Below are positions 4,811-26,560 of a DNA stretch of 33,496 bases, one piece after another. Position numbers and translations under genes: made by a program. A model generated the notes under the pieces. The model was not told the origin of the DNA. It was given only the letters and a program-made list of their open reading frames with translations, and searched no databases. How positions within the stretch are numbered: position 1 is the first letter of the stretch; each line of letters begins with the position of its first letter. The DNA comes from Candidatus Aenigmatarchaeota archaeon (GTDB lineage: Archaea > Aenigmatarchaeota > Aenigmatarchaeia > CG10238-14 > WAMV01): contig WAMV01000012.1 of assembly GCA_015522145.1 (NCBI GenBank), positions 1-33,496 of the forward strand, written 5' to 3'.

Positions 4811-4814
4811 TATT

Positions 4815-5540
4815 ATGAAGTATTATGATTTGCATGTAGAACCTAATTTCTCTCAAGGAGAAAATGTATTAGAAGAGTTTTTAGAAATAGCTCAAGAATT
4901 GGGATATGCAGGGATTGTGTTTATTTTTCCCTGGAAAAAGAACACTCTAGATTTTTTAACAGCGGAAATTGAAAGGCTTAGCTCTATGTTTAAGACCAAA
5001 CCCTTTTTGGGTTTTTACGTTAAAAGTGTCAGGGAATTTAAAGAAGCTGTGAAATATAGAAAGTTTATAGATGTCCTTGCTGTAAAAGGTGGTGATAGCC
5101 GGATGAACAGACTGGCTGTAGACAAAAAAGAAGTTGATTTGTTAATTCACCCAGAAAGGGGTAGAAAAGATTCTGGTCTAAACCATATATTTGCAAGATT
5201 AGCGGCAAAAAACAACACATTTATAGAATTAAATTTCCACGAGCTTGTAGCAAGTACAGAAAGGTTCAAAGTTTTGAAAAAATTTTTCGATAATGTTAAG
5301 CTGGCTATGAAGTATAAGTTTAATATAGTTGTAACTTCTGGGGCCTATTCAAAATGGGAACTTAGAGATCCCATCAGCTTTGTGGCTTTGCTACATGAAT
5401 TAGGTTTTGACTTAAAAACAAGTAAGCAAATGCTCTCAAAAAACATTGAAAAAATGTTAAAGGAGAATAGAAAAAGAAAGAAAAAAGAATGGATAGCTCC
5501 AGGTGTGGAGGTGGTCAAATGGCCTTCCAGAAAAGAATAA
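4815..5540 (+). CDS. rnp3: RNase P protein component 3 (Rpp30)
   Basis: MKYYDLHV... TIM/PHP-like Rpp30 layout, in the conserved position after rpl15e and before Pop5. Confidence 0.75.
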   Translation: MKYYDLHVEPNFSQGENVLEEFLEIAQELGYAGIVFIFPWKKNTLDFLTAEIERLSSMFKTKPFLGFYVKSVREFKEAVKYRKFIDVLAVKGGDSRMNRLAVDKKEVDLLIHPERGRKDSGLNHIFARLAAKNNTFIELNFHELVASTERFKVLKKFFDNVKLAMKYKFNIVVTSGAYSKWELRDPISFVALLHELGFDLKTSKQMLSKNIEKMLKENRKRKKKEWIAPGVEVVKWPSRKE

Positions 5541-5881
5541 AAGTTTTGATACCAACGCTGAGGGAAAGAAAGAGATACATAGCTGTTAAACTAATTTCTG
5601 AAGAAAAATTAATACCTAGTGATGTTGAAGATGCTATCAAAAAAACTTTGCAAAATTTTTATGGAGATTTTGTTTATTCAACTTTTTCTCTAAAAATAGC
5701 AAAAAATTTACTCTACCAAGGAAAAAACATAATAATTTTGAAATGCAACCATCTTTCTGTCAACAGAGTGGTTTTAGGTATTGCTATGCTTGACAGAATA
5801 GGAGATGTTAGGGTTATACCAAAAGTTATAAGTGTATCTGGCACTATTAAAAATTTAAGGAGGAAGATAAAAAATGCCTGA
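5519..5881 (+). CDS. rnp2: RNase P protein component 2 (Pop5)
   Basis: MAFQKRIKVLIPTLRERKRYIAVKL... is a typical Pop5 N-terminus. The track start at 5489 is probably over-extended, so ATG 5519 is chosen. Confidence 0.7.
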   Translation: MAFQKRIKVLIPTLRERKRYIAVKLISEEKLIPSDVEDAIKKTLQNFYGDFVYSTFSLKIAKNLLYQGKNIIILKCNHLSVNRVVLGIAMLDRIGDVRVIPKVISVSGTIKNLRRKIKNA

Positions 5882-6554
5882 ACTGTTGCCAGAATATATG
5901 GGTTATGACAGAACCATAGCTGTTTTTAGCCCAGATGGAAGGCTATTCCAAGTAGAGTATGCAAAAGAGGCTGTAAAAAGAGGGCTAACATCTTTAGGTA
6001 TAACGTATAAGGAAGGCGTTTTGCTAGCAACTGTTAAAATAATCAAACCTCTCCTCGTCACGGAGACTACAGAAAAAATATTCCAGATTGATGATCACTT
6101 GGGTGCAGTAGCAGCTGGTTTGTTAGCTGATGCTCGAGTTCTTATAGACCAAGCTAGAATAAAATCCCAGGTTCACAGAATAACTTATGAAGAACCCATA
6201 GATGTAGTAAGCCTAGCAAAATTTGTTGCTGATAAGATGCAGCTTTCAACGCTTTATGCTGGTTTAAGACCTTATGGAACCACTTTATTAATTGGTGGTA
6301 TGGACTCTAAGCCACATCTTATAGAAGTAGACCCATCTGGTATGATATATGAATGGCAGGCCTATGCTATAGGCAGGGGTGCCAGTGTAGCAAATAAAAT
6401 ACTTAAAGAAAAATGGAAGCCTGGAATGAGTTTTGAGCAAGCCAAAAAACTAGCTGAGGAAATTTTACAAAAAACAGAAAAAGAAAAAGGTAACAAGCTT
6501 AGCATGGCTGTTATAGACAAAAAAGGTTTTAGAATTCTAAACAATCAAAAGTGA
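5874..6554 (+). CDS. psmA: proteasome alpha subunit
   Basis: YDRTIAVFSPDGRLFQVEYAKEAVKRG is the alpha-subunit signature. AGGAGG Shine-Dalgarno site upstream. Confidence 0.93.
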   Translation: MPELLPEYMGYDRTIAVFSPDGRLFQVEYAKEAVKRGLTSLGITYKEGVLLATVKIIKPLLVTETTEKIFQIDDHLGAVAAGLLADARVLIDQARIKSQVHRITYEEPIDVVSLAKFVADKMQLSTLYAGLRPYGTTLLIGGMDSKPHLIEVDPSGMIYEWQAYAIGRGASVANKILKEKWKPGMSFEQAKKLAEEILQKTEKEKGNKLSMAVIDKKGFRILNNQK

Positions 6555-7273
6555 GAGCCTTGGCAATAAGTATTGAAAAAGCGGTCATAGCAAGATTACA
6601 CATTAAAGGAAATAAATTCGAAATTTTGGTAGACCCAAAACTAGCTTGGGAATTTAAGCAGGGAAAGGATATTGACATTGACGAAATTCTGGCTTATCCA
6701 GCAATTTACAGAGATGTTAGGGCTGCAGAGGTTGCTAGTGAAGAGGAATTACAGAGTAATTTTGGCACAACTGATTATAGGGAAGTAGCTAAAAAAATTA
6801 TTAAAGAAGGTGAACTACAGCTAACTGTAGAGCAAAGAAGGGAAATGATAGAACAGAAAAAAAATCAAATAGCTTCAATAATAGCTAAACAAGCTATAAA
6901 TCCCCAAACAAATACACCACATCCTCCCAGTAGGATTATTAACGCAATGGAACAGTTGGGTATTAACATAGATCCGTTCATAGAGGCTGAGTTGCAAGTG
7001 GAAAGGATTTTACCAGAGCTGAAAAAGTTGTTGCCTCTTAAATTCCAAAAAGTGGTTATGGAAGTAAAGATACCACCAGCTTACGTTGGTAAGATATTCG
7101 CCTCTCCCTTGAAAAAGTATGCTACCATTAAAGAAGAATCCTGGGAAAGTGATGGCAGTCTGAAACTAAAATTAGAATTTTTTGCTGGAAGCCAGCAAGA
7201 AATAGAAAAAGTTATAGCTAATGCTACTCACGGCAATTTTGAGTCCAAAATACTGGAGAGGATTGATGTATGA
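6551..7273 (+). CDS. sdo1: SBDS/Sdo1 ribosome maturation protein
   Basis: GTG start overlapping the psmA stop (GTGA). The sequence VIARLHIKGNKFEILVDPKLAWEFKQGK matches the SBDS N-terminal (FYSH) domain. Conserved superoperon position. Confidence 0.85.
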   Translation: MRALAISIEKAVIARLHIKGNKFEILVDPKLAWEFKQGKDIDIDEILAYPAIYRDVRAAEVASEEELQSNFGTTDYREVAKKIIKEGELQLTVEQRREMIEQKKNQIASIIAKQAINPQTNTPHPPSRIINAMEQLGINIDPFIEAELQVERILPELKKLLPLKFQKVVMEVKIPPAYVGKIFASPLKKYATIKEESWESDGSLKLKLEFFAGSQQEIEKVIANATHGNFESKILERIDV

Positions 7274-7926
7274 TAAGGAAAATTGTGTTGCCTGGAGAAT
7301 ACCTAGAAGAGCAGAGAGGAAGAAAATTAGGTACGGGTGTGTATAAAGAAGGAACTAAAGTATTCTCAGCTGTCCTAGGCACACCAAAAATTAGCGACAC
7401 AGAAATTTCTGTAATACCGCTAGCAGGAAAATATATACCGAAAGTTAACAACATGGTTATAGGTGTTATAAAGGATGTAGAAATAACAGGATGGGTTGTT
7501 GATATTAATGCGCCTTACATGGCATACTTACCTTTAAGCGAAGGTGTTAAGGAATTTGTTGACATCAAGAAAGTTGATCTAAGCCAATTTTATGATATTG
7601 GTGATTGGATTTATTGTCAGATTTTCAAAGTACCCAGAAATAAAATAGTCCAGCTGAGCATGAAAGCTGAAAACGCTAGAAAGTTGGAAGGTGGAGTAAT
7701 TGTTAAAATAACACCTTATAAAATACCGAGGTTAATAGGTAAAGGTGGTAGCATGATTAAGATTATTAGCGAGAAAACAAAAACAACAATAATACCTGGT
7801 CAAAATGGTTTGGTTTGGGTTAAAGGTAAAGATGTGGAAAAAGCTATAAAGGCTATAGAGCTTATAGAAAAGGAATCCTATATTTATGGGCTGACAGAAA
7901 AAGTTACGAGGTTGTTGGAAAAATGA
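7270..7926 (+). CDS. rrp4: exosome complex RNA-binding protein Rrp4 (S1 + KH)
   Basis: VLPGEYL N-terminal domain, S1 domain, and KH motif IGKGGSMIKII. Confidence 0.88.
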   Translation: MIRKIVLPGEYLEEQRGRKLGTGVYKEGTKVFSAVLGTPKISDTEISVIPLAGKYIPKVNNMVIGVIKDVEITGWVVDINAPYMAYLPLSEGVKEFVDIKKVDLSQFYDIGDWIYCQIFKVPRNKIVQLSMKAENARKLEGGVIVKITPYKIPRLIGKGGSMIKIISEKTKTTIIPGQNGLVWVKGKDVEKAIKAIELIEKESYIYGLTEKVTRLLEK

Positions 7927-8627
7927 AGGGTAATGTTGAGTTAATAATTGACGGAAAAAGATTGGATGGAAGAAAGCCTTTGGAAATGAGAGAAGTAGAG
8001 ATGAAAGTAAACGTAGTTAGGAATGCTGATGGTTCCGCTTACGTCAGATTTGGAAAAACTATAGCTATAGCTGCGGTTTATGGCCCAACGATTTTATTAC
8101 CTAAGCATTTACAAGAAGACAAGCTTTTGGTTAAAGTAAGGTATAGCATGCTACCCTTTTCTGTGGATGAAAGAAAGTCTCCAGGTCATGATAGGAGAAG
8201 TATTGAATTGAGTAAAGTTATTAAAAATGCTTTAGCTCCAGCAATTATGCTTGATGAGTACCCTAGGGCTGTGCTTAAAGTTTACGTTGAAATAATTCAA
8301 GCAGATGGCTCTACTAGAGTCACAGGTACCAATGCAGCAAGTTTAGCTTTAGCTATGGCTGGCGTGCCAATGAAAGATTTGGTTACAGCATGCTCTGTCG
8401 GTAAAATAAATGATACTATAGTTTTGGATTTGAACGGTATAGAGGATAATAATTCACAAGCAGACATGGCTTTTGCTATGATGCCTTCCAAGAATAGAGT
8501 AACTTTATGGCAAATGGATGGTCAGCTCACTAAGGAAGAAATTAAAAAAATGATCAAAATAGCAAGCGATGCATGCAAAAAGCTTTATGATATGCAGAAA
8601 AAAGCAATAAGAGGTGCTTTCAAATGA
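7923..8627 (+). CDS. rrp41: exosome complex exonuclease Rrp41 (RNase PH fold)
   Basis: GKRLDGRKPLEMREVEMKV...ADGSAYVRFGKT...DGSTRVTGTNAASLAL are RNase PH motifs. Confidence 0.9.
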   Translation: MKGNVELIIDGKRLDGRKPLEMREVEMKVNVVRNADGSAYVRFGKTIAIAAVYGPTILLPKHLQEDKLLVKVRYSMLPFSVDERKSPGHDRRSIELSKVIKNALAPAIMLDEYPRAVLKVYVEIIQADGSTRVTGTNAASLALAMAGVPMKDLVTACSVGKINDTIVLDLNGIEDNNSQADMAFAMMPSKNRVTLWQMDGQLTKEEIKKMIKIASDACKKLYDMQKKAIRGAFK

Positions 8628-9382
8628 TGATAGAAGAATATGTTAGGGAAGTATTGAATAAAGGAAGAAGAATAGACGGAAGAAGATTTGATGAATACAG
8701 AAAAATCATTGTGGAAAAGGATATCATTGAGAAAGCAGAAGGTTCCGCGAGAGTAAAGCTTGGTAATACAGAAGTTATAGCTGGTGTTAAGCTTAATGTT
8801 TTGAAACCATTTCCTGATACGCCAGAAGAAGGTGTGCTCATAGTAAATGCAGAATTTTTGCCAATAGCTCATGAAGAGTATGAGCCTGGACCCCCTGGAG
8901 AAGATGAAATAGAACTTGCTAGAGTTGTAGATAGAGCAATAAGAGAAAGCAAAGCTATAAAGCTAGAAGAGCTTTGTATTGAACCTAGCGAAAAAGTTTG
9001 GGGTGTGTTTATAGATATAACCGTTATTAACGATGATGGAAATTTGATGGATGCTGCATGCTTGGCTGCGACCGCAGCATTGGAAGTTACTAAAATACCA
9101 AAATATGAAGAAGACAAAATAATTAGAGGAGAGTATCAGGGTAAATTACCTTTAAGGGCTAAACCTGTTATAGTTACCGTAGCTAAGTACGGAAGAAGAT
9201 TCTTAGTTGATTTGAAAAAGGAAGAAGAGGAAATTATTGATACCAAAGTAAGCATAGGTGTTTTTGATGGTAAAGTTTGCGCTATACAAAAGCAGGGTCA
9301 AGGTTATATATCCTTACGTGATATAGAAACTATATTGGAATTGGCATTAAGAAAAAGTCAAGAGCTTAAGAAGGTGATATGA
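8624..9382 (+). CDS. rrp42: exosome complex component Rrp42
   Basis: GRRIDGRRFDEYRKI...AEGSARVKLGNTEVIAGVK; RNase PH-like inactive partner, placed after rrp41. Confidence 0.9.
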   Translation: MMIEEYVREVLNKGRRIDGRRFDEYRKIIVEKDIIEKAEGSARVKLGNTEVIAGVKLNVLKPFPDTPEEGVLIVNAEFLPIAHEEYEPGPPGEDEIELARVVDRAIRESKAIKLEELCIEPSEKVWGVFIDITVINDDGNLMDAACLAATAALEVTKIPKYEEDKIIRGEYQGKLPLRAKPVIVTVAKYGRRFLVDLKKEEEEIIDTKVSIGVFDGKVCAIQKQGQGYISLRDIETILELALRKSQELKKVI

Positions 9383-13827: not shown

Positions 13828-14193
13828 ATGAAAGCTGTTAGCACAGTCATAGCTACGCTTTTAATGTTAATAATAACAATTGCGCTTGCGGGTGTTGCTT
13901 ATACTTACATAAGCGGTGTTTTTACAGCAAGAACAGCAGTTGCTCTAAGCATAGAAGACGCTTTTTGCGATCCAAACTTAAATAAAATATACGTTGTTGT
14001 GAGAAACGATGGCACAACTGATGCTACAAACGTTAATGTGACTGTGGCTGGAGTGGGTAGCTTAACCAACTATATAACTGTTCCATCCGGACAGGTTGTA
14101 ACAGCAGAAATAAATGGTTACGCTTCTGGAGCCCATACTGTAATAGTAACATCACCAAACTCTGTTGCTAGAGGTACTGTAATTTGTCAATAA
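13828..14193 (+). CDS. archaeal type IV pilin-like protein, paralogue D (distant)
   Basis: MKA|VSTVIATLLMLIITIALAGVAYTYISGVF is a class III signal peptide followed by a beta-rich domain (IYVVVRNDGTTDATNVNVTV). ATG 13828 is chosen rather than the track start at 13735. Confidence 0.7.
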   Translation: MKAVSTVIATLLMLIITIALAGVAYTYISGVFTARTAVALSIEDAFCDPNLNKIYVVVRNDGTTDATNVNVTVAGVGSLTNYITVPSGQVVTAEINGYASGAHTVIVTSPNSVARGTVICQ

Positions 14194-15410
14194 ACTACCC
14201 CATAGCCTATTAAGCGCCACCTACCATTAATGTTACGGGAAATGGCTATTCTTTCTTTTTCTTTAATCGCTATAGGTAAGGCTAATTTAGCCTCTACAAT
14301 ATCACCAAGCTTGGTCACAATTGCAACTGTTCTTGCAGTACCGGCGTTTATCAAAAGTTTTTCTCCTTGTTTTATGGGTTCAACATTTCTGAAATCTTCC
14401 AACCCAACAACCCTTTCCAACAAATGAATTTCAAAACTAAGCTCATACCTTATTTCTGGAAGCTTGCCTGGTCTGCCTACAACATTACCAACAAGAGCAT
14501 CTGCTCTTGTCAGGCTTGGGTCCAGCTTTGTCATAACACCTAAAAGACCTCCCGGCCCAGCTTCTTCTAAGTCAATACCTTTCTTTTGTAAACCAACAAT
14601 TTCTGTTGTTAATGGTTTTGCTTTTCCATTTTCTATTATGCCAGGTCTTATCTCAATTTCATCTCCTATCTTAAATTTTCCCTGCAACAAAGAGCCACCT
14701 AGAACACCACCTTTAAGCTCTCCCGGCCTAGTTCCTGGTTTATTAACATCAAAACTTCTAGCAATCAACATCAGCGGATCCAAATTTGGATCTCTTTTAG
14801 GGGTAGGTATGTATTTTTCTATTGCTTCCAAAACATACTCTATGTTTACTCTATGGGCAGCAGAAATAGGTATTATTGGGGCATCAGCATAAGGTGTATT
14901 AGCTAAAAATTCTTTAATCTCCTCATAACTTTGCAATACTCTTTCTTTACTTACCTTATCTATTTTGTTTTGAACAACAACCAAATTTTTTATTCCTATT
15001 GTTTGTAAAGCTACAACATGTTCCCTTGCCTGAGGTTGAGGACATTTTTTATCAGCGGCTATAACAAGTATGGCTCCGTCCATAAGTCTTGCTCCTGTAA
15101 GCACGGTAGCCATTAAAGCTTCGTGGCCAGGCGCATCAACAAAGCTTATGGTTCTTTGAATTTCTGTATCGCTAAAACAGAATGGACATTTCTTGCTAGT
15201 GCTATACTTACCACACTTTGGGCATTTGTAAATGGTTGCATCAGCATAGCCCAGCCTTATTGTAATTCCTCTTTTTAGTTCTTCACTATGTTTAAGGGTT
15301 AGCTTGCCTGTTATAGCATGAACTAAAGTAGATTTGCCATGAGCTACATGACCAACAACACCTATGTTAACTTCTGGTAATTCTTTTGGATTAACGCTTG
15401 GCATAATCAT
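14187..15410 (-). CDS. eif2g: translation initiation factor 2 gamma subunit
   Basis: GVVGHVAHGKST G1 motif, zinc knuckle CPKCGKYSTSKKCPFC, DAPGHE, NKID. Confidence 0.93.
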   Translation of the reverse strand: MIMPSVNPKELPEVNIGVVGHVAHGKSTLVHAITGKLTLKHSEELKRGITIRLGYADATIYKCPKCGKYSTSKKCPFCFSDTEIQRTISFVDAPGHEALMATVLTGARLMDGAILVIAADKKCPQPQAREHVVALQTIGIKNLVVVQNKIDKVSKERVLQSYEEIKEFLANTPYADAPIIPISAAHRVNIEYVLEAIEKYIPTPKRDPNLDPLMLIARSFDVNKPGTRPGELKGGVLGGSLLQGKFKIGDEIEIRPGIIENGKAKPLTTEIVGLQKKGIDLEEAGPGGLLGVMTKLDPSLTRADALVGNVVGRPGKLPEIRYELSFEIHLLERVVGLEDFRNVEPIKQGEKLLINAGTARTVAIVTKLGDIVEAKLALPIAIKEKERIAISRNINGRWRLIGYGVVY

Positions 15411-15437
15411 GATTATGATTTAGCTAAACTTAAAAAC

Positions 15438-15848
15438 TTAGCCTTCTTGCTTTTCTTCTTTCTTACTCAAAATTTCTTCTATTGGTTTAGTACCTTTTTT
15501 AACAATTTTACAGTTTATTTGTCTTATATCTTCTGCTATTGTGTTGCCCCTCACTGTTTTTCTCCTTCTTTCACCTTTTTTTCTAGGATGAAAACCTGGT
15601 GGTTTCGAAAGCAACAGTTTTTTCCTTACTGTTCCTTCTAGCGAGGGGTGCATAGAGAAGCCATCTTGGTCTGTGCCGCCAGTTATTTTAAGAACATAAC
15701 CTTCCAAACCCAAAAAGCTTGCATCAAACTCATCTCCAATTTTTTTGCCTATAATACTAGCTGCCTTAGTTTTTTCTATTTCAACTTGATAGCTTTTTCT
15801 AGTCTCTGGATCGTTTATGACAAATATGAAGGTTGTTGGTGCTGCCAT
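15438..15848 (-). CDS. rps6e: ribosomal protein S6e
   Basis: FIFVINDPETRKSYQVE...LKITGGTDQDGFSMHPSL...RRRKTVRGN is S6e. Confidence 0.9.
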   Translation of the reverse strand: MAAPTTFIFVINDPETRKSYQVEIEKTKAASIIGKKIGDEFDASFLGLEGYVLKITGGTDQDGFSMHPSLEGTVRKKLLLSKPPGFHPRKKGERRRKTVRGNTIAEDIRQINCKIVKKGTKPIEEILSKKEEKQEG

Positions 15849-15897
15849 AAAGTTATTATTTCAACCTTAAATTATAAATCTTTACCAAACATTTTTT

Positions 15898-17037
15898 ATG
15901 GAAAAATTTGTTGTGACTCCTTGGGAAGTTAAAGGAAAAATAGATTATGACAAGCTTATTAAGAAATTCGGCACTCAAAAAATTGATAAGAAATTGAAAA
16001 ACAGGATTCAAAAACACACAAAAGAATTGCATGTAATGCTAAGGAGGGATGTTTATTATTCGCATAGAGATTTGGATAAAGTTTTAGATGATTATGAAAA
16101 GGGCAAAGGATTTTTCTTGTACACAGGGCGTGGCCCTTCAGGCAAAATGCATATTGGCCATCTTTTGCCTTTTGTTTTTACCAAATGGCTTCAGCAAAAA
16201 TTCAAAGTTAACGTTTACATAGAAATAACTGACGATGAAAAATTTTTGGTTAAGGAAAATGTTAAATGGGAAGAAATAAAGAAGTTTGCTGAAGAAAACA
16301 TATTGGATATAGCAGCTGTTGGTTTTGATAGAAAACGAACTTTTATTTTCAAAGATAGTGAGTACATCAAAAACATATACCCTTTGGTTGTTAAAATTGC
16401 AAAGAAAATAAATTTCTCAACAGTAAAAGCAGTGTTTGGTTTTAAGAATCAAACAAACATTGGCATGATTTTCTTTCCTGCTTTGCAAATAGTACCTACT
16501 ATGTTTGAAAAAAAGAGAGCCTTGATCCCTGCAGCCATAGACCAAGATCCTTATTGGCGTGTCCAAAGAGACATAGCTGAGAAATTTAGTTATGAGAAGG
16601 CTGCATGCATTCATAGCAAAATGCTTCCAGCGCTAACTGGTTTAGATGAAAAAATGAGTTCTAGCAAACCACATACAGCAATATTCCTGGATGAGGATGA
16701 GAAGAGCATAAGGAAGAAAATATACAAATATGCTTTTTCTGGTGGCCAAGCAACTGTTGAGCTGCATAGAAAGCTTGGGGGCAATCCTGAAATAGATGTC
16801 AGTTTTCAATGGCTAAAGTTTTTTTTTGAACCTGATGATAAAAAGCTAAAAAAGATTGAGGAAGATTACAAAACAGGTAAGCTACTAACAGGAGAGCTTA
16901 AAGAAATTTTGATAGAAAAAGTTAGCAAATTTTTGCAAAAGTTTCAGGAAAATAGGGAAAAAGCTAAGAATTATGTTGATGATTACCTTTACCATGGTAA
17001 GCTAGCTAGAAAAATGTGGAATACTGTTTACGAATAA
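15898..17037 (+). CDS. trpS: tryptophanyl-tRNA synthetase
   Basis: VTPWEVKGKIDYDKLIKKFG, HIGH motif (GKMHIGHLL), KMSKS variant (KMSSSKP). Confidence 0.9.
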   Translation: MEKFVVTPWEVKGKIDYDKLIKKFGTQKIDKKLKNRIQKHTKELHVMLRRDVYYSHRDLDKVLDDYEKGKGFFLYTGRGPSGKMHIGHLLPFVFTKWLQQKFKVNVYIEITDDEKFLVKENVKWEEIKKFAEENILDIAAVGFDRKRTFIFKDSEYIKNIYPLVVKIAKKINFSTVKAVFGFKNQTNIGMIFFPALQIVPTMFEKKRALIPAAIDQDPYWRVQRDIAEKFSYEKAACIHSKMLPALTGLDEKMSSSKPHTAIFLDEDEKSIRKKIYKYAFSGGQATVELHRKLGGNPEIDVSFQWLKFFFEPDDKKLKKIEEDYKTGKLLTGELKEILIEKVSKFLQKFQENREKAKNYVDDYLYHGKLARKMWNTVYE

Positions 17038-17070
17038 AATTTAAAGTTTGTAAAGAGAAATTTTAACTTA

Positions 17071-18312
17071 ATGACAATAAAATACGAGCTAACGGAAGAA
17101 GGCAAGAAATTTCTGAAGGAAGGATTTCCTGAAAACAAGCTTATAGAAATTGTTGAAAAAGAGCAAGAAGTGGAAATTTCTAAATTGAAAAAAGAAATAG
17201 ATGCTTTGAACATAGCGTTAAAATGGGCAAAGGACTTTGGTTGGATAAGAATTGAAAAAGGTAAAGTTTTCTTCTTAAAAAAAACAGATAATCCGTTCGA
17301 GAAATTGCTAAAAGATTTTAGCCAAAATAAACCGTTAAGCGATAAAGAGCTAACCATGTTAGAAAAAAGGGGTTTGATAAAAAAAGTTGTAAAAGGTATA
17401 GCTGATGAATTAGTTGGCAAAGAAGTAGCTGTGCTTCATCCAGATTTAATAAAAACTGGGTTATGGAGAAAAGTTAAGCTAATAGAGTATGATGTTAAGG
17501 AAAAAGTAGAGGCAAAAGTGCCTGGCAAGGAACATCCATACAGGCAGGTAATAAATTACTTAAGACAAAAACTAATAGAACTTGGTTTCGTTGAGCATTT
17601 TGGACCTTATGTTGAATTGAATTTCTGGAATTGTGATGCTTTGTTCATGCCTAGCGATCATCCAGCAAGAGGTATACATGACATATTCTACGTCAAAAAA
17701 CCAAAATATGGTAAAATTATAGACAAAGAGTTGTGGAGAAGAGTAGGTCAAACTCATAAAAATGGGTGGAAAACTGGGAGTAAAGGTTGGGGTGCCTGGG
17801 ATGCAAGATTGGCTAAAAGATTAATACTAAGAAGCCAAACAACAGCTTTGTCTGCAAGAACTCTTTACAACCTTCCCAAAACACCTTACAAAATGTTCAC
17901 AATAGATAAAGTTTTTAGGCCTGATGTTATAGACGCTAAACATTTTATAGAGTTTGAACAATGTGAAGGTATTGTAGTCGATGAAGATTTAAATTTCAGA
18001 AATTTGTTAGCATACCTAAAAGAAATAACAAGAAGTTTGGATATAGAAAAAGTCAGATTCAAACCATCTTATTTCCCATTCACTGAGCCAAGTGTAGAGG
18101 GTATGGTATGGCATGAAGAGCTAGGCTGGATTGAAGTGTTGCCTGGTGGTATATTTAGGCCTGAGGTAACTTTGCCTTTAGGTATAGATAAGCCCGTATT
18201 AGCATGGGGTATAGGAATAGGAAGACTTGCAATGATTAAGCTTGGTATAGATGATATAAGAATGCTCTACTCAGATGATTTAGGTTGGCTAAGGAATAAG
18301 GAGTTGATATAA
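17071..18312 (+). CDS. pheS: phenylalanyl-tRNA synthetase alpha subunit
   Basis: Class II motifs (MPSDHPARGIHDIFY, FRPD, FEQCEGIVVD, GIGIGRLAM). Confidence 0.92.
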   Translation: MTIKYELTEEGKKFLKEGFPENKLIEIVEKEQEVEISKLKKEIDALNIALKWAKDFGWIRIEKGKVFFLKKTDNPFEKLLKDFSQNKPLSDKELTMLEKRGLIKKVVKGIADELVGKEVAVLHPDLIKTGLWRKVKLIEYDVKEKVEAKVPGKEHPYRQVINYLRQKLIELGFVEHFGPYVELNFWNCDALFMPSDHPARGIHDIFYVKKPKYGKIIDKELWRRVGQTHKNGWKTGSKGWGAWDARLAKRLILRSQTTALSARTLYNLPKTPYKMFTIDKVFRPDVIDAKHFIEFEQCEGIVVDEDLNFRNLLAYLKEITRSLDIEKVRFKPSYFPFTEPSVEGMVWHEELGWIEVLPGGIFRPEVTLPLGIDKPVLAWGIGIGRLAMIKLGIDDIRMLYSDDLGWLRNKELI

Positions 18313-19949
18313 TGCCAGTAATAGCTTACAACAAAAAAGATTTGCTAAAGCTTGTAGGACAAGAATTTAGTGATGAGACTCTCGCAAAAATAATAGAAAA
18401 GCTTAAGCCAGAAGTAGAGGAAATAAGCGAAGAAGAAATTATTGTAGAAGTTACTCCTGATAGGCCAGATTTTTATGGTGTGGAAGGGCTTGCTAAAGCT
18501 ATTAGAGATTTTGCTGGATTGAAAAGCAAAGAAAATAAATTAATAAAGCCAAGCACAGAGGTTAAAGTAGAAAAAGTTAAAGCTAGGCCATATGTTGCAT
18601 GTGCAATAGTAAAAAATGTAAAGCTTGATGATTATCTTGTTAAGTATTTGATGAATTTGCAGGAAATTCTTACAAACACTATTGGTAGGAAAAGAAAAAA
18701 AGTTGCTATAGGATTGCATGATTTGGATAAAATAAAAGGTAAAATAGTTTACAGGGCAGCAAATCCCGATGAAAAAATGATTCCACTTGGACACATTCAA
18801 GAAATGACGCTAAAAAAAGTTCTAGAAAAAACTGAAAAAGGAAAAGAGTTTGCCCATATTTTGAAAAATACAAAACAATATCCTGTTTTTGTAGATGAAG
18901 AAGGCATCTTTAGCTTTCCACCCATATTAAATAGTGATAGAACAAAAGTAACTGAAAACACAAAAAACATCTTTGTAGACGTGACAGGAATTGACAGAAA
19001 AGCTGTTATGGAAGCCATTAATTTGCTTGCATTTTTCTTCTTGCAAAGAGGGTGGAAAGTAGAGCAAGTAAAAATGAAATTCGAAAAAAAATCTTACGCA
19101 ACTCCTGAAGCAAAAGATCAGGTAATAGAAGTAAGCGTAGATTACATAAACAAAATGTTGGGCACAAAATTATCTAGGGATGAAATAATATCTTTGTTGA
19201 GGAAAGTTGGGTTAAAGGCTTTTAGTGATGATGATAAACTCGTAGTAGTTGTGCCTTATTATAGAATTGATGTGTTGCATCCTGTAGATATAGTTGAAGA
19301 TGTGGCCATAGCTTATGACTATGATAATTTCGAGCTTGAGTTACCAAAAACCATAACTTTAGGCAAAGCCCACGAGCTAGAGATATTTAGCGAAAAAGTA
19401 AGAAAGTTGATGATTGGTATGGGTTTCCAAGAAATTATGACACCTGTTTTGACAAATAAAGAAAAACAATACAAAATGATGTTAGCTAAAGAAGAAGAAT
19501 GTGTGGAAATAGCAAATCCTGTAAGCCAAGAATATACATGCATGCGAACTTGGCTCTTACCAAATCTACTTAGCTTTTTAGCTAAGAACAAAAGACATGC
19601 TTACCCACAAAAAATATTTGAGATTGGCAATGTTGTGGTAAGAGATGATAAAGAAGAAGTTCTTGCAAAAAATGTTAGAAAGCTCTGTTTTGTTATTTCT
19701 GGTAAAAAAGGCACTTTTCATGAAGCTAAAGCATGCTTATTAGGTTTACTTAAGAATTTAGGCAAGCAAGCTGTATTTGACAAATCTTACGCTAGGACTT
19801 TTATTAAAGGAAGGTTAGCAAGTATTTTTGTTTCTGGCAAAGAAATTGGTTTTATTGGCGAGATAAATCCAGAAGTTTTGGAAAACTTTGGCTTGGAGAT
19901 GCCTGTTGTTGCCTGTGAGCTAAACATTGAGAAGTTAAAAGAGCTTTGA
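18312..19949 (+). CDS. pheT: phenylalanyl-tRNA synthetase beta subunit
   Basis: TAATG overlap with pheS. B3_4/B5 domain layout typical of the archaeal beta subunit (EVTPDRPDFYGVEGLAKAI). Confidence 0.9.
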   Translation: MPVIAYNKKDLLKLVGQEFSDETLAKIIEKLKPEVEEISEEEIIVEVTPDRPDFYGVEGLAKAIRDFAGLKSKENKLIKPSTEVKVEKVKARPYVACAIVKNVKLDDYLVKYLMNLQEILTNTIGRKRKKVAIGLHDLDKIKGKIVYRAANPDEKMIPLGHIQEMTLKKVLEKTEKGKEFAHILKNTKQYPVFVDEEGIFSFPPILNSDRTKVTENTKNIFVDVTGIDRKAVMEAINLLAFFFLQRGWKVEQVKMKFEKKSYATPEAKDQVIEVSVDYINKMLGTKLSRDEIISLLRKVGLKAFSDDDKLVVVVPYYRIDVLHPVDIVEDVAIAYDYDNFELELPKTITLGKAHELEIFSEKVRKLMIGMGFQEIMTPVLTNKEKQYKMMLAKEEECVEIANPVSQEYTCMRTWLLPNLLSFLAKNKRHAYPQKIFEIGNVVVRDDKEEVLAKNVRKLCFVISGKKGTFHEAKACLLGLLKNLGKQAVFDKSYARTFIKGRLASIFVSGKEIGFIGEINPEVLENFGLEMPVVACELNIEKLKEL

Positions 19950-21479: not shown

Positions 21480-22418
21480 TCAGCAGAAATTTTGCGTTAC
21501 ATATACTGTACCATTATTGGTTATGTAAACACCAATACCTTCCTTTCTATAATATTCTGCCAACAAATTTTTTCTATGCCCTTCACTTCCCAACCAGCCT
21601 TGAACTGTAGCATTAGCAACATCACCTACGGTTTGAAATACGTAAGAGGTTATCTCGCCTGTTTTAGGATTGTAATAATAAGAAGTATAAATATAAGTCT
21701 GTAGGAGATTCTCACCTCCTGTATAAATCAAATTCCCAACAACAATCCTACAAGAATAGTTAAACTTCTTATACCTGTCTTGCAAAGTTTCACCTTCTGG
21801 GCTTTCATGGGCAAAGTAGTTTTTTAAAGCCATATCTTTACTATGATATCTTGCTATTTCAGCAAGCTTTTCGTCCCATTCTAATGTTTGCAATCCGTAT
21901 TCTTTTCTAACTTTGTTAACAAGTTCGTGTATTTTTAATTCTAGAACATATTGTTGATTCCTGAATTCTAGAACTTTTTCTTGTAAAATTTCGTTAGTTG
22001 TTTTATATCTAGCCAAAATTTCTGGTGGATAAAGTCTTGGTTTCAATTCTTTGAAAGAAATAAAACCAAGTTGAGATTCTAGCAAATATCTAGCTTTTAC
22101 ATCTAAGTTTTCTATTCCTAAAATTGTGCCAGCGTAGCTAAGAAAGTTTTGGGAATAGTCTGAAAAAGTAAGAATTGCTAAAGAAAATAGAAAAGCTACA
22201 ATAAGATGTTTGTAAGGAAGTATGTCTTTTGTCTTCCAGTAAATTTCCTCTATAATCAGTAAAATAATCGTTAATATTAGAGTTCTAGAAATTATGGTTG
22301 CTAATTTTAATGTTTCTTCAAAAATAAAATGAATTGTAAGAACTATTATAAGAAGGTAGCTAAACAACTTTACAAAATTCTGAATCAAAAAAAGCTCTCT
22401 CTTCTTCTTTTTCAGCAT
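21480..22418 (-). CDS. membrane-anchored CAP/SCP (PR-1, YkwD-like) domain protein
   Basis: Several TM segments at the N-terminus. The C-terminal IARYHSKDMALKNYFAHESPEG...GENLL...VQGWLGSEGHRKNLL...GIGV...VTQNF is the CAP-domain signature. The start is trimmed to ATG 22418, because the track start at 22478 runs into the tRNA 3' exon. Confidence 0.8.
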   Translation of the reverse strand: MLKKKKRELFLIQNFVKLFSYLLIIVLTIHFIFEETLKLATIISRTLILTIILLIIEEIYWKTKDILPYKHLIVAFLFSLAILTFSDYSQNFLSYAGTILGIENLDVKARYLLESQLGFISFKELKPRLYPPEILARYKTTNEILQEKVLEFRNQQYVLELKIHELVNKVRKEYGLQTLEWDEKLAEIARYHSKDMALKNYFAHESPEGETLQDRYKKFNYSCRIVVGNLIYTGGENLLQTYIYTSYYYNPKTGEITSYVFQTVGDVANATVQGWLGSEGHRKNLLAEYYRKEGIGVYITNNGTVYVTQNFC

Positions 22419-22481
22419 AAAATAATCTGTGTTTTTATCTAAATTTGAAATAATGCCCCCGGTGGGATTCGAACCCACGAC

Positions 22482-23108
22482 CTACGGCTTAGGTTCGACA
22501 GAGAGGAGGGCTCTAATTAAAGGTCTATATTTAGTGTTTACTGATTTATTAAAATAATTTTTATCCAAAAGCTTAAACGGTTTAATTTTATATATGAATT
22601 TTAATGATTCTTGACCATACACTATGACTTCATAGTAATCCCTTCTATTTTTTCTTTTTTCGTTTACGCAAACTAGTTTATGATGAATATTCATTGTCTT
22701 CATGGCTTGTGAGACTAAATCTATTATGGATTTAGATGAGTTAGTAATCTTTATTCTTCTACCTCTTCTAGTACTTCTAAAATCTATAGAACCTTCTGCA
22801 TCAAAGATGCCTCGTAAAAACACACGTGCATATTTTTCCTCTCTTATTAACCTAGCTAGTTCTTTTCTTATTTTTTTGATTTTTTTTACTAATTTCTCGT
22901 CCCTTATACATATGATAATTTCTGGTTTCCAGTTATGCTTTCTCTTTTTTCTTTTATAAATTCGGGTTTTAGATGTGAGTGTGTTTATTAATTTTTTGTA
23001 TTTTGTAGCCAGTGTTCTGTTGGTTGTTGAAATAGCTATAGATTTGCCTAACTCATACCCATCTCCTATGTAATAGCCAGTTATGTTTATTAACAGTTCT
23101 TTTTTCAT
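22482..23108 (-). CDS. LAGLIDADG homing endonuclease (two-motif, I-DmoI-like size)
   Basis: 208 aa. Motif 1 is ITGYYIGDGY and motif 2 is FLRGIFDAEGSI, about 95 residues apart. A GGAGGG Shine-Dalgarno site lies 2 nt before the AUG. The last 3 sense codons and the UAG stop lie in tRNA exon 2. Confidence 0.85.
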   Translation of the reverse strand: MKKELLINITGYYIGDGYELGKSIAISTTNRTLATKYKKLINTLTSKTRIYKRKKRKHNWKPEIIICIRDEKLVKKIKKIRKELARLIREEKYARVFLRGIFDAEGSIDFRSTRRGRRIKITNSSKSIIDLVSQAMKTMNIHHKLVCVNEKRKNRRDYYEVIVYGQESLKFIYKIKPFKLLDKNYFNKSVNTKYRPLIRALLSVEPKP

Positions 23109-23122
23109 AGCCCTCCTCTCTT
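22494..23122 (-). mobile_element. BHB-type archaeal intron carrying a homing-endonuclease ORF
   Basis: The precursor can fold as: 3-nt bulge C32-U33-A; a 4-bp helix (C28-C31 CGGC with intron GUCG at 22496..22499); 3-nt bulge A-A-C34; then a perfect 13-bp helix joining the intron termini (23109..23121 with 22500..22512). Confidence 0.75.
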
Positions 23123-23184
23123 AGGCCGCCGCTCTATCCAGGCTGAGCTACGGGGGCCTAATCAAAAATTAAAAACGTTAGCAT

Positions 23185-24759
23185 TTATTTAAATTTCCTG
23201 TCCATAACAAACCAGAATAAGTAAAGTGGTAAATTTCCTTCATACATAAGCAAATCATTAAACTTTCTTTCATTAAAATTATTTACTGTTTCAAATTCCC
23301 TCCTTAGTTCTTTTATCATATGCTTGCCAATTAAATAGCAAAGCTGATATCCCGGGCTTTTAGTGTATCTTTTTACCTCCGCTAAAGCACCTTCCCTATC
23401 TAGGTAAGCATTCCTAATTAAAAAGTTAACTGCTTGCTTAAAACTCATCCTACCTGTACTTAGTTTTATATCAACAATTACCCTGCAGGCACGCCATATA
23501 GCATCTTTTAGAAAAACAAATTTCTCCTCTGGCTTATTCAAAAATCCTTTTTCGAGCATGTATTCTTCGCAATAATGAGCCCAACCCTCTACAAACTCTG
23601 GTGGACTTAGCAAATGTCTTACATAACTTTTTTGCAATGAAGCACATGCATGCTGCAAATGATGGCCTGGATATGCTTCATGTACCACAGTGTTTTTTAT
23701 GGAAGCGTATGTTAAATGTTTGCCAAGCTTTTGTCTAGGCGTTACAATATATATACCAACTTTGTTTTTTTCAAAAGGTGCAGGTGGAAAATAAGCTGCA
23801 TAAGGAATTAACTTTGTTAAATATGAAGGTGTTTCCATTATAACAAGCTTTTCTCCTTTTGGTAAGGTAAAAAGTTTGTTTCTTCTCAAAAATTCTTTTA
23901 ACTCTTTTACAACTTGTTTATGATATTTCAAAGCTTCTCTGAAAGTTTTTGGTTTGTTATTTTCTAAAATTTTTTCAGCTTCCTTAACAGTCTTGACATT
24001 CATTTCCTTTAGAACCTTTTTCATTTCTTTTTGATATCGCCTAAGATAGTAATTTGCTAAGCTTAACATTTCATCCTTGCTTAAATTTATCAACATTAAC
24101 TGAATTAGTTCATCAAACTCTTCATCACTTAGCCAATATTTCTCGCTCGCTTTTGTTTTTATTTTCTTCAAATGTTCTTTATAGCTTGCTAAACTTTTTT
24201 TAGCTTTGCTAACAATTTCTTCAGCCTTTCTCAAATTTCTAAACTTATTCGCTTTACAAATTTCCAAAATCGTATCTAAAAAGTTCTCTAGCATAGGGAT
24301 GTTTTCCAAAGCTATATCAACCCAGATCTTAACTGGTTTATCAACAGTTTTTTTCATTTGTTCCAAAACTTTGGAAAATTTTTCTATTCTTTTCAAAGCG
24401 CTTCGCATGCGCTTATTGAATGGGGCAAAATCTCTAAAAATAAGTGGAAATAAGGCATCACCTAAAAAGCTCACATCTGGGTCTCTTTCCCACATTCTTA
24501 TTTTCTCTAACCAAAAAAGCTCAAGCCTTAACTCATAAACAGCTGCTAACCTGCTAATTTCTTCATCAAAATTCTTTGTTTCAACACTTTCGAATTTTCT
24601 CAAAAATTCTTTCAGCTTCTTGATTTCTTTCTCTATCGTTTTCTTACTCAAATCAGGCAGCTCAGAATCGTACTTATGAACTCCTAAAAAAGTTGCTAGT
24701 ATTGGATTTTGTTTAACTACATAATCAAAAAATTCTTTTTCCAATTTTCTGAAGCTCAT
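23185..24759 (-). CDS. DUF885 family protein (putative metallopeptidase-like)
   Basis: 524 aa. The HEAYPGHHLQ motif and overall length are typical of DUF885. Confidence 0.7.
   Translation of the reverse strand: MSFRKLEKEFFDYVVKQNPILATFLGVHKYDSELPDLSKKTIEKEIKKLKEFLRKFESVETKNFDEEISRLAAVYELRLELFWLEKIRMWERDPDVSFLGDALFPLIFRDFAPFNKRMRSALKRIEKFSKVLEQMKKTVDKPVKIWVDIALENIPMLENFLDTILEICKANKFRNLRKAEEIVSKAKKSLASYKEHLKKIKTKASEKYWLSDEEFDELIQLMLINLSKDEMLSLANYYLRRYQKEMKKVLKEMNVKTVKEAEKILENNKPKTFREALKYHKQVVKELKEFLRRNKLFTLPKGEKLVIMETPSYLTKLIPYAAYFPPAPFEKNKVGIYIVTPRQKLGKHLTYASIKNTVVHEAYPGHHLQHACASLQKSYVRHLLSPPEFVEGWAHYCEEYMLEKGFLNKPEEKFVFLKDAIWRACRVIVDIKLSTGRMSFKQAVNFLIRNAYLDREGALAEVKRYTKSPGYQLCYLIGKHMIKELRREFETVNNFNERKFNDLLMYEGNLPLYLFWFVMDRKFK
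23186..23193 (-). promoter_or_regulatory. TATA-like box upstream of tRNA-Arg
   Basis: Minus-strand TTTAAATA lies at -36..-29 relative to tRNA position 1 and overlaps the last codons and stop of the upstream DUF885 gene. Confidence 0.3.
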
Positions 24760-24772
24760 AAAAATATTATTC

Positions 24773-26560
24773 TTACATTATAACTTTAATTTCCTTACCC
24801 GTCATCAAAGCCTTGACTAATGTTTTACCTATTTCACTAGCCTTACTAATTCTAACAACACCTTTCCTGCTTACAGTACCACTAAACACAAACTTTCCTT
24901 CAACATAAAAATTAACTGTTTTATTAGCAAGTTTTGGATCAAAAGAAAACTCTAAGCTATTTCCTACTTCCCTTACCTCATACTTAACTTCCTTGCCTAA
25001 AGTAGCATATTTTGGCTCTACATCAATACCGATACCCAGCTTTTTCTCTATGTTGCTTATGGTTTTACCACCCCTCCCTATTAATTTAGGTATTGCCTTC
25101 TCACTTACCCTAACTATTGCTCTATTACCTTTAAACTCTATCTCAGCTTTTTTGTCGAACTTAGAAATTACTTCATATATCTTTTGTTTAGCTAACTCAA
25201 TAATAGCATTGGTCTCTTCTTTAGCCACAGGAACAACAATATTCTCTTCACCATAAGAATAAATTTCATACTCTAGCTTTCCGGTTTCAAAATCCCTTAT
25301 TTCTACAACAGGTCTTGCTAAATCTTCAGACTTCATGCCAGTAGGTATTTTAACAACAAGTTGTAAAGTGTATATTTTCTTGATCTCACCGTTCTTAACA
25401 AAAATTACTGTGTCAACAATATGAGGTATCATTCCAAGCTCAATCCTGCCTATAAATCTTTGTATTGCGCTTATAGCATCACTTGAATGCACAACTCCTA
25501 TCATGCCTACACCAGCAAGCCTTAGGTCAGCAAATATTTGAAATTCTCTAGTCTTCCTAACTTCGTCAAAAATTGTGTAATCTGGTCTTACCAAAAGTAA
25601 AATATCAGCTGTTTTCTCAAAATCTCCCTCTAATGGAGCATATTGTGTTATTTCTTCGCTAACCTGCAAATCTCTAGGACTTTCCATAGTTTTAACAATC
25701 TTTCCCATTTTAAGATAGAATTCTGCTATGCTTGCTGCTAGCGTACTTTTTCCAGAGCCTGGCGGTCCAGCTATAATTATGCCTTCTGCCCTTTCCTTAA
25801 GCCTTTCTATTAATTTTTTAGAAGGTTTATAATCCTCTAAACTAAGCTTGACTAATGGCCTAACTATAGTTACTTCCAATCCATCGCTAAAAGGTGGTCT
25901 AGCTATCGATATCCTGTAATTTTTGAACTGTATAACAGTGGCTCCCCTTCTCTCTATTTCTATGCTTGCTTCTTCACTAACCCTAGAAGCTTCTATAATT
26001 TCCATTATGATTTTCTCTATATCTTCTTTAGTCAGTTTTTCATCACTAAGCTTAACAAGCTTAAATTCTCCAGGCTTGCCTTTTTTAGCTATTGGCTCAA
26101 CTCCTTCTTTCAAATGCACAGATAAAGTGCTTTCATCAAAAAACCTTTCAAATTCAAGACCTTCTGTCTTTATCTCTGGCTCTAAATAAATGCTTTTAAC
26201 TCCTTCTGCTTCAGCAACTAAATGCTGAACATAATCAGCAGTAATCAAATAAGCATCTTCATTTTTAGCAACATCCCTAATTATGGCATCTATCCTTCCT
26301 GCTTTAGCTAGTTTTATTTCTTCTAGTGTAGGCCTTTGACCTGTGAATCTGAATTTAATTCCTTTTTCCTCGCAGTATACTCTAAGCCTTTTTAACTGCT
26401 CTAACCCTACAAATCCAGGCTCTCTGCCTTTGCTAGCCTGAGCCTGCAACTCATCTAGCACAGCTATAGGTATGATTATCTCTTTCACATTTCCTTGCTC
26501 TTCTATCCACTCTGGGAGCTTGCCATCTATTATTACGCTCGTGTCAGGTACTAGCTTCAT
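24773..26560 (-). CDS. PIN domain - PilT-like ATPase - KH domain protein (COG1855 class)
   Basis: N-terminal PIN (LVPDTSVIIDG...VLDELQ), Walker A GPPGSGKST, C-terminal KH (LIGRGGKTISNIEKKLG). Confidence 0.8.
   Translation of the reverse strand: MKLVPDTSVIIDGKLPEWIEEQGNVKEIIIPIAVLDELQAQASKGREPGFVGLEQLKRLRVYCEEKGIKFRFTGQRPTLEEIKLAKAGRIDAIIRDVAKNEDAYLITADYVQHLVAEAEGVKSIYLEPEIKTEGLEFERFFDESTLSVHLKEGVEPIAKKGKPGEFKLVKLSDEKLTKEDIEKIIMEIIEASRVSEEASIEIERRGATVIQFKNYRISIARPPFSDGLEVTIVRPLVKLSLEDYKPSKKLIERLKERAEGIIIAGPPGSGKSTLAASIAEFYLKMGKIVKTMESPRDLQVSEEITQYAPLEGDFEKTADILLLVRPDYTIFDEVRKTREFQIFADLRLAGVGMIGVVHSSDAISAIQRFIGRIELGMIPHIVDTVIFVKNGEIKKIYTLQLVVKIPTGMKSEDLARPVVEIRDFETGKLEYEIYSYGEENIVVPVAKEETNAIIELAKQKIYEVISKFDKKAEIEFKGNRAIVRVSEKAIPKLIGRGGKTISNIEKKLGIGIDVEPKYATLGKEVKYEVREVGNSLEFSFDPKLANKTVNFYVEGKFVFSGTVSRKGVVRISKASEIGKTLVKALMTGKEIKVIM

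Follow-up and report, generated by a model that had tools for sequence, protein, structure and literature searches.

A probable mobile bulge-helix-bulge intron carrying a LAGLIDADG endonuclease gene in the tRNA-Arg(CCU) gene of an Aenigmatarchaeota archaeon

In a 33,496-nucleotide (nt) contig of a Candidatus Aenigmatarchaeota archaeon (WAMV01000012.1, positions 1 to 33,496; hereafter, the window), two short segments of the minus strand that lie 629 nt apart join into a tRNA-Arg(CCU), and the sequence between them is occupied almost entirely by an open reading frame (ORF) for a LAGLIDADG protein. We consider it likely that this is a functional tRNA-Arg(CCU) gene with a mobile bulge-helix-bulge (BHB) intron at position 33/34, the intron being little more than the gene of an endonuclease of the I-DmoI type. 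From the anatomy of the gene, its conservation and covariation, and the family of its protein, we infer cleavage by the splicing endonuclease EndA, ligation, translation and DNA cleavage, and on this sequence evidence the intron is probably spliced, endonuclease-bearing and mobile.

The 5' exon (23123..23157, minus strand; 35 nt; GCCCCCGTAGCTCAGCCTGGATAGAGCGGCGGCCT) comprises tRNA nucleotides 1-33, that is, the 5' strand of the acceptor stem, the D arm, the 5' strand of the anticodon stem, C32 and U33, and the 3' exon (22454..22493, minus strand; 40 nt; CCTAAGCCGTAGGTCGTGGGTTCGAATCCCACCGGGGGCA) runs from C34 to the discriminator A73, with CCA not encoded. These coordinates and sequences, together with the 629-nt gap, had been proposed in an initial annotation made from the letters alone, and they read the same on re-examination of the sequence; ARAGORN, given the joined exons, likewise agreed with the proposed identity, calling a 75-nt tRNA-Arg(CCT). 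All stems of the joined tRNA pair (acceptor, 7 base pairs (bp); D, 4 bp; anticodon, 5 bp; T, 5 bp), so that the earlier description of a 'flawless' cloverleaf holds as to pairing but is too strong by one wobble pair, G27-U43 in the anticodon stem. The anticodon loop, CU-CCU-AA, has 7 nt with U33, and conserved elements of the D and T loops are present. The exons have a GC content of 68%, compared with 30% for the intron and 34% for the whole window, and the 5' half of the tRNA differs very little from that of archaeal tRNA-Arg genes that have no intron. Neither ARAGORN at its default settings nor Rfam at the gathering threshold reported a tRNA anywhere in the window, a result that marks a limit of detection and not an absence. 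With long introns allowed, ARAGORN returned the same 629-nt interruption that had been annotated, its junction shifted by 1 nt to give Ser(ACT) with A34; we rejected this junction because A34 is implausible and because the BHB geometry favours 33/34. A TATA-box-like sequence, TTTAAATAAA, lies 27-36 nt 5' of tRNA position 1 (23184..23193, minus strand), overlapping the stop codon of a DUF885 gene (23185..24759), and is a plausible candidate for an archaeal promoter of the precursor.

The intron (22494..23122, minus strand; 629 nt) occupies a site, 33/34, that is also occupied in five other loci, and its boundaries coincide with a BHB splice signal. The central helix H of this signal is formed by C28, G29, G30 and C31 of the 5' exon (23125..23128, minus strand) and the intron tetrad GUCG (22496..22499, minus strand), which pair in the minimum free energy (MFE) fold and covary among loci, the intron strand reading GCCG, GCUG or GCAG elsewhere. 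On either side of this 4-bp helix (CGGC/GUCG), and on opposite strands, lie two 3-nt bulges (CU/A and AA/C): the 5' bulge consists of C32, U33 and the first A of the intron (23122..23124, minus strand; predicted 5' splice site between 23123 and 23122) and the 3' bulge of two intron A residues and C34 (22493..22495, minus strand; predicted 3' splice site between 22494 and 22493). The ends of the intron are closed by a helix h' of 13 contiguous bp, the 5' strand of which (AGAGAGGAGGGCU; 23109..23121, minus strand) includes a GGAGG Shine-Dalgarno-like run just 5' of the ATG of the ORF, and the 3' strand of which (AGCCCUCCUCUCU; 22500..22512, minus strand) also codes for the C-terminal residues RALLS. 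When the complete precursor (704 nt) was folded without constraints, the MFE structure included the 13-bp h', helix H and the 5' bulge of 3 nt, in keeping with the BHB as first annotated (a 4-bp helix, two 3-nt bulges and a 13-bp closing helix), and the D, T and acceptor arms were formed as well. Its H and h' being strong and its exon helix h weak, the motif fits the relaxed HBh' class and not the strict hBHBh' form.

Cutting each strand of this motif after the second bulge nucleotide gives U33/C34 and restores a tRNA-Arg(CCT) that ARAGORN can call. Canonical archaeal introns place anticodon nucleotides 34 and 35 in the 4-bp helix (PMC4090602), so that H comprises nucleotides 32-35, the bulges are 36-37/i1 and i-i/38, and each strand is therefore cut after the second nucleotide of its bulge; a further check of the rule was made with the second, canonical intron of the tRNA-Trp genes described below. 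The signal in the window follows this canonical rule, displaced four positions upstream, and the splice position U33/C34 claimed at the outset matches both the published geometry and that of the tRNA-Trp intron.

The ORF (22482..23108, minus strand; 208 amino acids (aa)) matches Pfam LAGLIDADG_3 with E = 2e-20 (73.2 bits, against a cut-off of 22.5) and leaves 14 nt of the intron outside it. Its placement inside the intron, as originally described, is accurate for all but its end, the last 12 nt (CCU AAG CCG UAG, three sense codons and the stop) lying in the 3' exon (22482..22493). The first LAGLIDADG motif, ITGYYIGDGY (I9-Y18; 23055..23084, minus strand), contains the candidate catalytic residue D16, and the second, VFLRGIFDAEG (V96-G106; 22791..22823, minus strand), contains E105. 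Residues G15-D16-G17 are identical in the alignment of P0001 with P0002 and are kept in the full-length members of alignment A2, and F102, D103, E105 and G106 are invariant in 10/10 family members; GIFDAEG in the second motif aligns to GLYVAEG of I-DmoI, which we take to contain the catalytic E117. A single-sequence phmmer search of the Protein Data Bank (PDB) gave no meaningful match, the family profile being needed to reach I-DmoI, which was then the best match in the PDB over nearly its full length (E = 1.7e-6). The AlphaFold2 model of the protein (mean predicted local distance difference test, 91.2; predicted template-modelling (TM) score, 0.89) has a predicted double alpha-beta-beta-alpha-beta-beta-alpha, pseudo-symmetric fold, and Foldseek matched it to I-DmoI with a probability of 1.00, a target-normalised TM score of 0.61-0.70 and ~18% identity, and also to PI-SceI, I-Tsp061I and the maturase bI3. 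The suggestion that the ORF belongs with the LAGLIDADG_3 and I-DmoI proteins was thereby borne out by a significant hidden Markov model search and by both profile and fold matches to I-DmoI, and, as judged from its sequence and model, the protein is a monomeric two-motif LAGLIDADG enzyme of the I-DmoI type that would cleave DNA.

Homologous endonuclease genes were found at the identical 33/34 site of tRNA-Arg(CCU) in five other loci (L001, L055, L062, L057 and L061, with L056 duplicating L055), which we group with the window as group A; with three tRNA-Trp loci (below), these make eight distinct related metagenome loci beyond the window. Their proteins are ~40-49% identical to that of the window, and those of the four loci other than L001 are 61-85% identical to one another. 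A word-indexed protein search with the single ORF yielded only one relative (P0002, 48% identity, on contig L001), only 13 matches below 1e-10 came from an exhaustive search with a profile across 1.84 billion representative proteins, and a ten-sequence profile recovered further proteins with readable contigs. Introns in group A range from 607 to 629 nt, with 629 nt in the window and L001 and 607-613 nt in L055/L056, L062, L057 and L061. L001 has the same exons as the window, an intron of exactly 629 nt, H formed by CGGC/GCCG, the bulges CU/A and AA/C, and a closing helix that differs in sequence (AGAGGGAUGUAG.../...CUACAUCCCUCU).

Comparison of the six loci revealed a splice signal that is conserved in plan while its sequence varies. 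The exon/intron tetrads of H are CGGC/GUCG, CGGC/GCCG, CAGC/GCUG and CUGC/GCAG, the intron strand tracking the exon; the bulges are (C/G)U/A and AA/C in all six, the latter invariant; the first 6 bp of h' pair in every locus despite differing sequence; and the first intron nucleotide is A in 9/9 loci when the tRNA-Trp loci are counted as well. In an alignment of the six mini-precursors, every cell of H (100%) was paired, one position showing three types of pair; double-sided changes were present in 12 pairs, and compensatory changes were also seen in the acceptor and T stems. The covariation score was 0.33, compared with 0.167 for shuffled alignments (0/500 shuffles reached 0.33), and 90.5% of cells were paired, compared with 36-49% in slid-partner controls, although with six sequences, several of them related, this covariation is supportive and falls short of formal proof. 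Chance is excluded by the recurrence of the same exon, intron and BHB plan across loci. Conservation is much higher in the exons than in the introns: L055 and L062 have identical exons and introns that are 81% identical, with a synonymous divergence (dS) of ~1.0, and the ratio of nonsynonymous to synonymous divergence (dN/dS) of the endonuclease gene is 0.13-0.23 (four comparisons). Conserved exons combined with low dN/dS are what a working tRNA with a working coding intron predicts, and are hard to fit to a dead gene.

Several further features were observed among the group A loci and their neighbours. In L061, the 5' exon is nearest that of L055 (92%) but the intron is nearest that of L057 (89%). 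The same contig has, ~50 nt downstream, an orphan second 3' half of tRNA-Arg(CCU) (1690..1738; CCTAAGCAGAGGGTCGCGGGTTCAAATCCCGTCGAGGGCA) that starts exactly at C34 and whose variable loop and T stem do not match those of the functional 3' exon; it may be the footprint of one-sided repair after endonuclease cleavage. L063 (1501..2224) holds a group A-type endonuclease gene outside a tRNA, 45 nt upstream of a tRNA-Arg(CCU) with two short ORF-less introns, one of 18 nt at 37/38 and the other of 20 nt at 29/30, the latter with a good BHB (GCAG/CUGC; bulges CU/A and AA/C); this contig ends in the T loop, and the tRNA was called with a guessed 3' end. In L001 (1506..1583), the ORF reads through the whole 3' exon with ~25 extra codons, and, if the 629-nt intron were circular, the ORFs of the window and L001 would stop at a TGA overlapping the ATG (...GAA|AAG AGA GGA GGG CTA TGA). 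Circular-intron translation to a conserved TGA was rejected as a trait of the family, the TGA being present only in these two loci, and the ORFs of the remaining group A loci end before or at the splice site. A gene for a PIN and T2SSE (plus KH) ATPase is found on the upstream side of the interrupted tRNA-Arg both in the window (24773..26560, minus strand) and in L057 (1..1447); this partial synteny suggests partly vertical inheritance, within the lineage, of the tRNA locus and perhaps of its intron. A metagenome scan with a two-protein alignment also recovered nine distant LAGLIDADG_3 genes (24-30% identity) with no split tRNA around them, which were set aside as free-standing relatives outside the clade, and a scan of viral contigs found no relative.

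A sister clade of the endonuclease interrupts a different tRNA gene. Relatives P0008, P0156 and P0010 (25-31% identity) are encoded within tRNA-Trp(CCA) at 30/31, in two-intron genes at three distinct loci (L053, 1913..2796; L058, 1905..2797; L060, 1424..2320; L054 and L059 are duplicates of L053 and L058, respectively). In these genes, H is formed by C25-C28 (CGGC) and GUCG, the bulges are G29-G30/A and A(C/G)/G31, and the closing helix h' is 16-19 bp long, with compensatory changes. The endonuclease intron is 742-760 nt long, and its excision leaves a tRNA-Trp(CCA) that ARAGORN recognizes, with a canonical 60-65-nt intron located 7 nt downstream and carrying CUGA and GAUGA box-like motifs; removal of both introns gives a 77-nt tRNA ending in CCA. 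Within the second intron, a 9-nt stretch, GGUCUGGAG, is complementary to the anticodon loop. The intron plan is common to both clades (a first A, a self-complementary helix, then GUCG-A-N), and the tRNA-Arg and tRNA-Trp genes share GAGCGGCGG, in which H is built on the second CGGC in the case of Arg and on the first in that of Trp, a 3-nt offset on a CGG repeat. We read this shared sequence and its offset as the likely trace of a past ectopic move between tRNA genes. Other intron-bearing tRNA genes (Tyr, Arg-GCG, Asn and Cys) crowd L053 (215..325 and 1719..1823) and L058 (631..744 and 1466..1574), and some of their introns hold duplicated T-arm-like sequence, with GGTTCGAGTCC occurring twice within one gene.

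Under the mechanism that we propose, a single 704-nt precursor would be transcribed, in which C28-C31 would pair with the intron GUCG instead of with nucleotides 39-42 and the 13-bp helix would join the ends of the intron, thereby presenting the bulges CU/A and AA/C 4 bp apart. The host tRNA-splicing endonuclease EndA would cut each bulge after its second nucleotide, and the RtcB ligase would join U33 to C34 and probably circularize the intron, with a predicted spliced junction of GGCGGCCU-CCUAAGCC and a predicted intron-circle junction of ...GUCGAA-AAGAGAGG. Either the precursor or the excised intron would serve as the message for the ORF, the product of which would cut intron-less tRNA-Arg(CCU) DNA around GAGCGGCGGCCU^CCUAAGCCGUAGG, after which double-strand-break repair would copy the intron in (homing). 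The candidate DNA target is GGATAGAGCGGCGGCCTCCTAAGCCGTAGGTCGTGGG, and the corresponding site in tRNA-Trp would be GGGAGAGCGGCGGGCTCCAGACCCG.

Potential targets of this kind are present in other archaea. A scan of 185,579 species genomes with the 5' exon returned 41 matches, all of them ordinary tRNA-Arg genes and some of them bacterial. Other archaeal phyla have tRNA-Arg(CCU) genes that are intron-less and identical in the anticodon arm (L036, L018, L034 and L037), one of which, from a member of the Nitrososphaerota (L036), equals the spliced tRNA of the window except in the acceptor stem, and intron-less tRNA-Arg(CCU) genes in L003 and L010 have one or two base differences. Intron-less alleles of tRNA-Arg(CCU), which the initial annotation proposed to seek in related genomes, were thus recovered as identical anticodon arms in other phyla, but none belonged to the same lineage. 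These intron-less targets, the discordance within L061, its orphan tRNA half and the decayed copies of the endonuclease gene fit, though they do not prove, the cycle of invasion, fixation and decay of homing elements.

Several observations weigh against a spliced and mobile intron in a functional gene. The exon helix h, for which a 2-bp length and a relaxed motif had been predicted, is indeed only 2 bp (G27-C35 and G26-U36); the MFE fold lacks it, the released 3' exon folding locally into a small hairpin, and in the six-locus alignment it is disrupted in L057 and does not covary. Such a relaxed motif requires a broad-specificity EndA; neither an EndA nor an RtcB gene was found within the 33.5-kb window; and the spliced junction and intron circle are predictions. 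The acceptor stem of L061 has two mismatches, the endonuclease gene of L063 is interrupted by an in-frame TGA at codon 151, indicating decay, and that of L060 (~1440..2252) is present as two overlapping ORFs (P0157, N-terminal; P0010, C-terminal), a frameshift attributable either to decay or to sequencing error. As for mobility, 0/41 matches from the genome scan carry the intron of the window and 0/41 share its acceptor stem, and none of them is an intron-less allele of the same lineage, as the presence/absence polymorphism that is the hallmark of active homing would require.

Part of this evidence could be accommodated if the intron were spliced and fixed but its endonuclease no longer drove mobility, the gene being inherited vertically and either kept for a different purpose, such as binding RNA or acting like a maturase, or drifting to loss. 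The failure of the genome scan to find intron-plus/intron-minus polymorphism, the PIN/T2SSE ATPase gene that precedes the tRNA in the window as it does in L057, the decayed copies in L060 and L063, and the presence of a LAGLIDADG maturase among the structural neighbours (bI3 in the Foldseek list) would all be in keeping with such a history. We nonetheless regard it as unlikely, given dN/dS values of 0.13-0.23 and the retention of both catalytic acidic residues across deep divergence, the discordant exon and intron similarities of L061 (an L055-like 5' exon with an L057-like intron), and the presence of one protein clade in two different tRNA genes; moreover, BHB splicing is protein-catalysed and works without a maturase. 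It is considerably less probable still that a free-standing endonuclease gene disrupted a tRNA pseudogene that is never spliced, with another gene supplying tRNA-Arg(CCU). That standard tRNA finders do not call the gene, that its outer exon helix is weak, and that L061 combines acceptor-stem mismatches with an orphan 3' half could be so understood, but the exons are intact and carry compensatory changes while the synonymous sites of the intron are saturated, the intron strand of H follows every exon change, and all six group A loci, and the tRNA-Trp clade in its turn, retain the insertion point, the bulges and the closing helix; a BHB would not be maintained in a dead gene. LAGLIDADG genes are known from group I introns of archaeal rRNA genes (PMC6125680) and L061 has its second orphan tRNA 3' half downstream, which might point to a group I or II self-splicing intron, or to an integrated element with a duplicate tRNA 3' half, in place of a BHB intron. 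We find this scarcely credible, as no Rfam group I or II intron family matched at the gathering threshold or even at E <= 1, the ORF takes up the entire intron apart from 14 nt and leaves no room for a ribozyme, and the window contains neither an integrase nor a duplicated tRNA half.

A mobile BHB intron in a working tRNA-Arg(CCU) gene would have its closest known counterparts in rRNA genes, where homing endonucleases account for the mobility of BHB introns. Endonuclease-bearing BHB introns are established in archaeal rRNA genes (PMC4496867, PMC6125680), including the 16S introns of the Thermoproteales (PMC4496867). The window element resembles these introns (I-DmoI of the Desulfurococcus mobilis 23S rRNA, I-PorI and I-Tsp061I) in its BHB, which would likewise be cut by the tRNA-splicing endonuclease, in its cargo of a ~200-aa monomeric two-motif LAGLIDADG protein, and in the long helix closing the intron ends; I-DmoI is the best PDB profile match and, with PI-SceI, the best structural match of the window protein. 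The host gene, however, is a tRNA gene here and an rRNA gene there; insertion inside the anticodon loop at 33/34 means that part of the anticodon stem is borrowed for the BHB; the element is far more compact, with 14 non-coding nt and an ORF that enters the 3' exon; and the protein is only ~18% identical to I-DmoI. Marck and Grosjean (2003) and Sugahara (2008) are reported to have described archaeal tRNA BHB introns that have no ORF, including some at non-canonical positions and some with relaxed hBH/HBh' motifs (reviewed in PMC4090602). According to a 2014 review, archaeal tRNA introns are 11-129 nt long with medians of 12-25 nt, their non-canonical positions include 29/30 and 30/31, and the mechanism of their transposition is unknown (PMC4090602). 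These ORF-less introns share their host genes, BHB logic and relaxed motif type with the window element, whereas the introns of the window (629 nt) and of the tRNA-Trp clade (742-760 nt) are protein-coding.

The initial annotation had called an endonuclease inside a tRNA BHB intron unusual, and the reported range of 11-129 nt supports that view, as does the fact that the same review contains neither 'homing' nor 'LAGLIDADG' (PMC4090602). No report of an archaeal tRNA BHB intron with an endonuclease gene came to light in the literature covered, most subscription journals lying outside that coverage; one review groups 'ribosomal and transfer RNA genes' together but cites rRNA work. The box C/D intron of archaeal tRNA-Trp(CCA), with a median of ~65 nt (PMC4090602), corresponds to the second, canonical 60-65-nt intron of the sister clade, with which the endonuclease intron coexists and is not to be equated. 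In bacteria, including cyanobacteria, group I introns occur in tRNA anticodon loops, some with homing endonucleases (PMC3984707). Like the window element, they are endonuclease-carrying mobile introns in an anticodon loop, with the same homing logic, but they self-splice as ribozymes, whereas the window element has no ribozyme and must therefore be spliced by host proteins. The tRNA-fMet intron with I-Ssp6803I is reportedly an example.

Taking the two clades jointly, we tentatively suggest, as a possibility that we hold with less than even confidence, that this endonuclease clade drives the gain and transposition of tRNA introns in archaea, with short introns as its remnants. In such a scheme, the intron may bring its own half-signal (the 5' A, the closing helix and GUCG-A-N), requiring of the exon only CGGC with two nucleotides after it, and the difference between Arg C28-C31 (33/34) and Trp C25-C28 (30/31) appears to be a 3-nt slip on the CGG repeat. 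Short introns that have no ORF but show the same bulges, of which the one of 20 nt at 29/30 in L063 is an example, would then be remnants left after endonuclease loss, and at least some non-canonical tRNA introns would descend from homing elements. The tRNA introns of archaea are many, occupy a wide range of positions and have clearly passed from gene to gene; for their origin, an endonuclease that has relatives under purifying selection and is found in the BHB introns of two different tRNA genes offers a concrete and testable mechanism of transposition. Introns of 629-760 nt, compared with a reported maximum of 129 nt, and a relaxed motif inside the anticodon loop also bear on how much the splicing machinery can accommodate. 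Such genes escape ARAGORN at its default settings and Rfam, and genomes that have them would be scored as being without tRNA-Arg(CCU) or tRNA-Trp. For enzyme engineering, the element may provide a compact I-DmoI-like protein with a defined, highly conserved natural target of 20-30 bp.

The genes of the window are those of a core archaeal chromosome, not of a mobile island. Two ranges, 4292..9382 (plus strand) and 14187..19949, have between them an archaeal exosome superoperon, with genes for L15e, RNase P p30, Pop5, proteasome alpha, SBDS, Rrp4, Rrp41 and Rrp42, and a translation gene cluster, with eIF2-gamma, S6e, a Trp/Tyr-type synthetase, and PheRS alpha and beta; the window also encodes eIF6, and its genes as a whole include those of RNase P subunits and several aminoacyl-tRNA synthetases. 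A 332-aa ORF (21480..22478, minus strand) is listed with a GTG start inside the tRNA 3' exon; the true gene, for a membrane-anchored protein of the CAP/cysteine-rich secretory family, more likely starts at the ATG at 22421.

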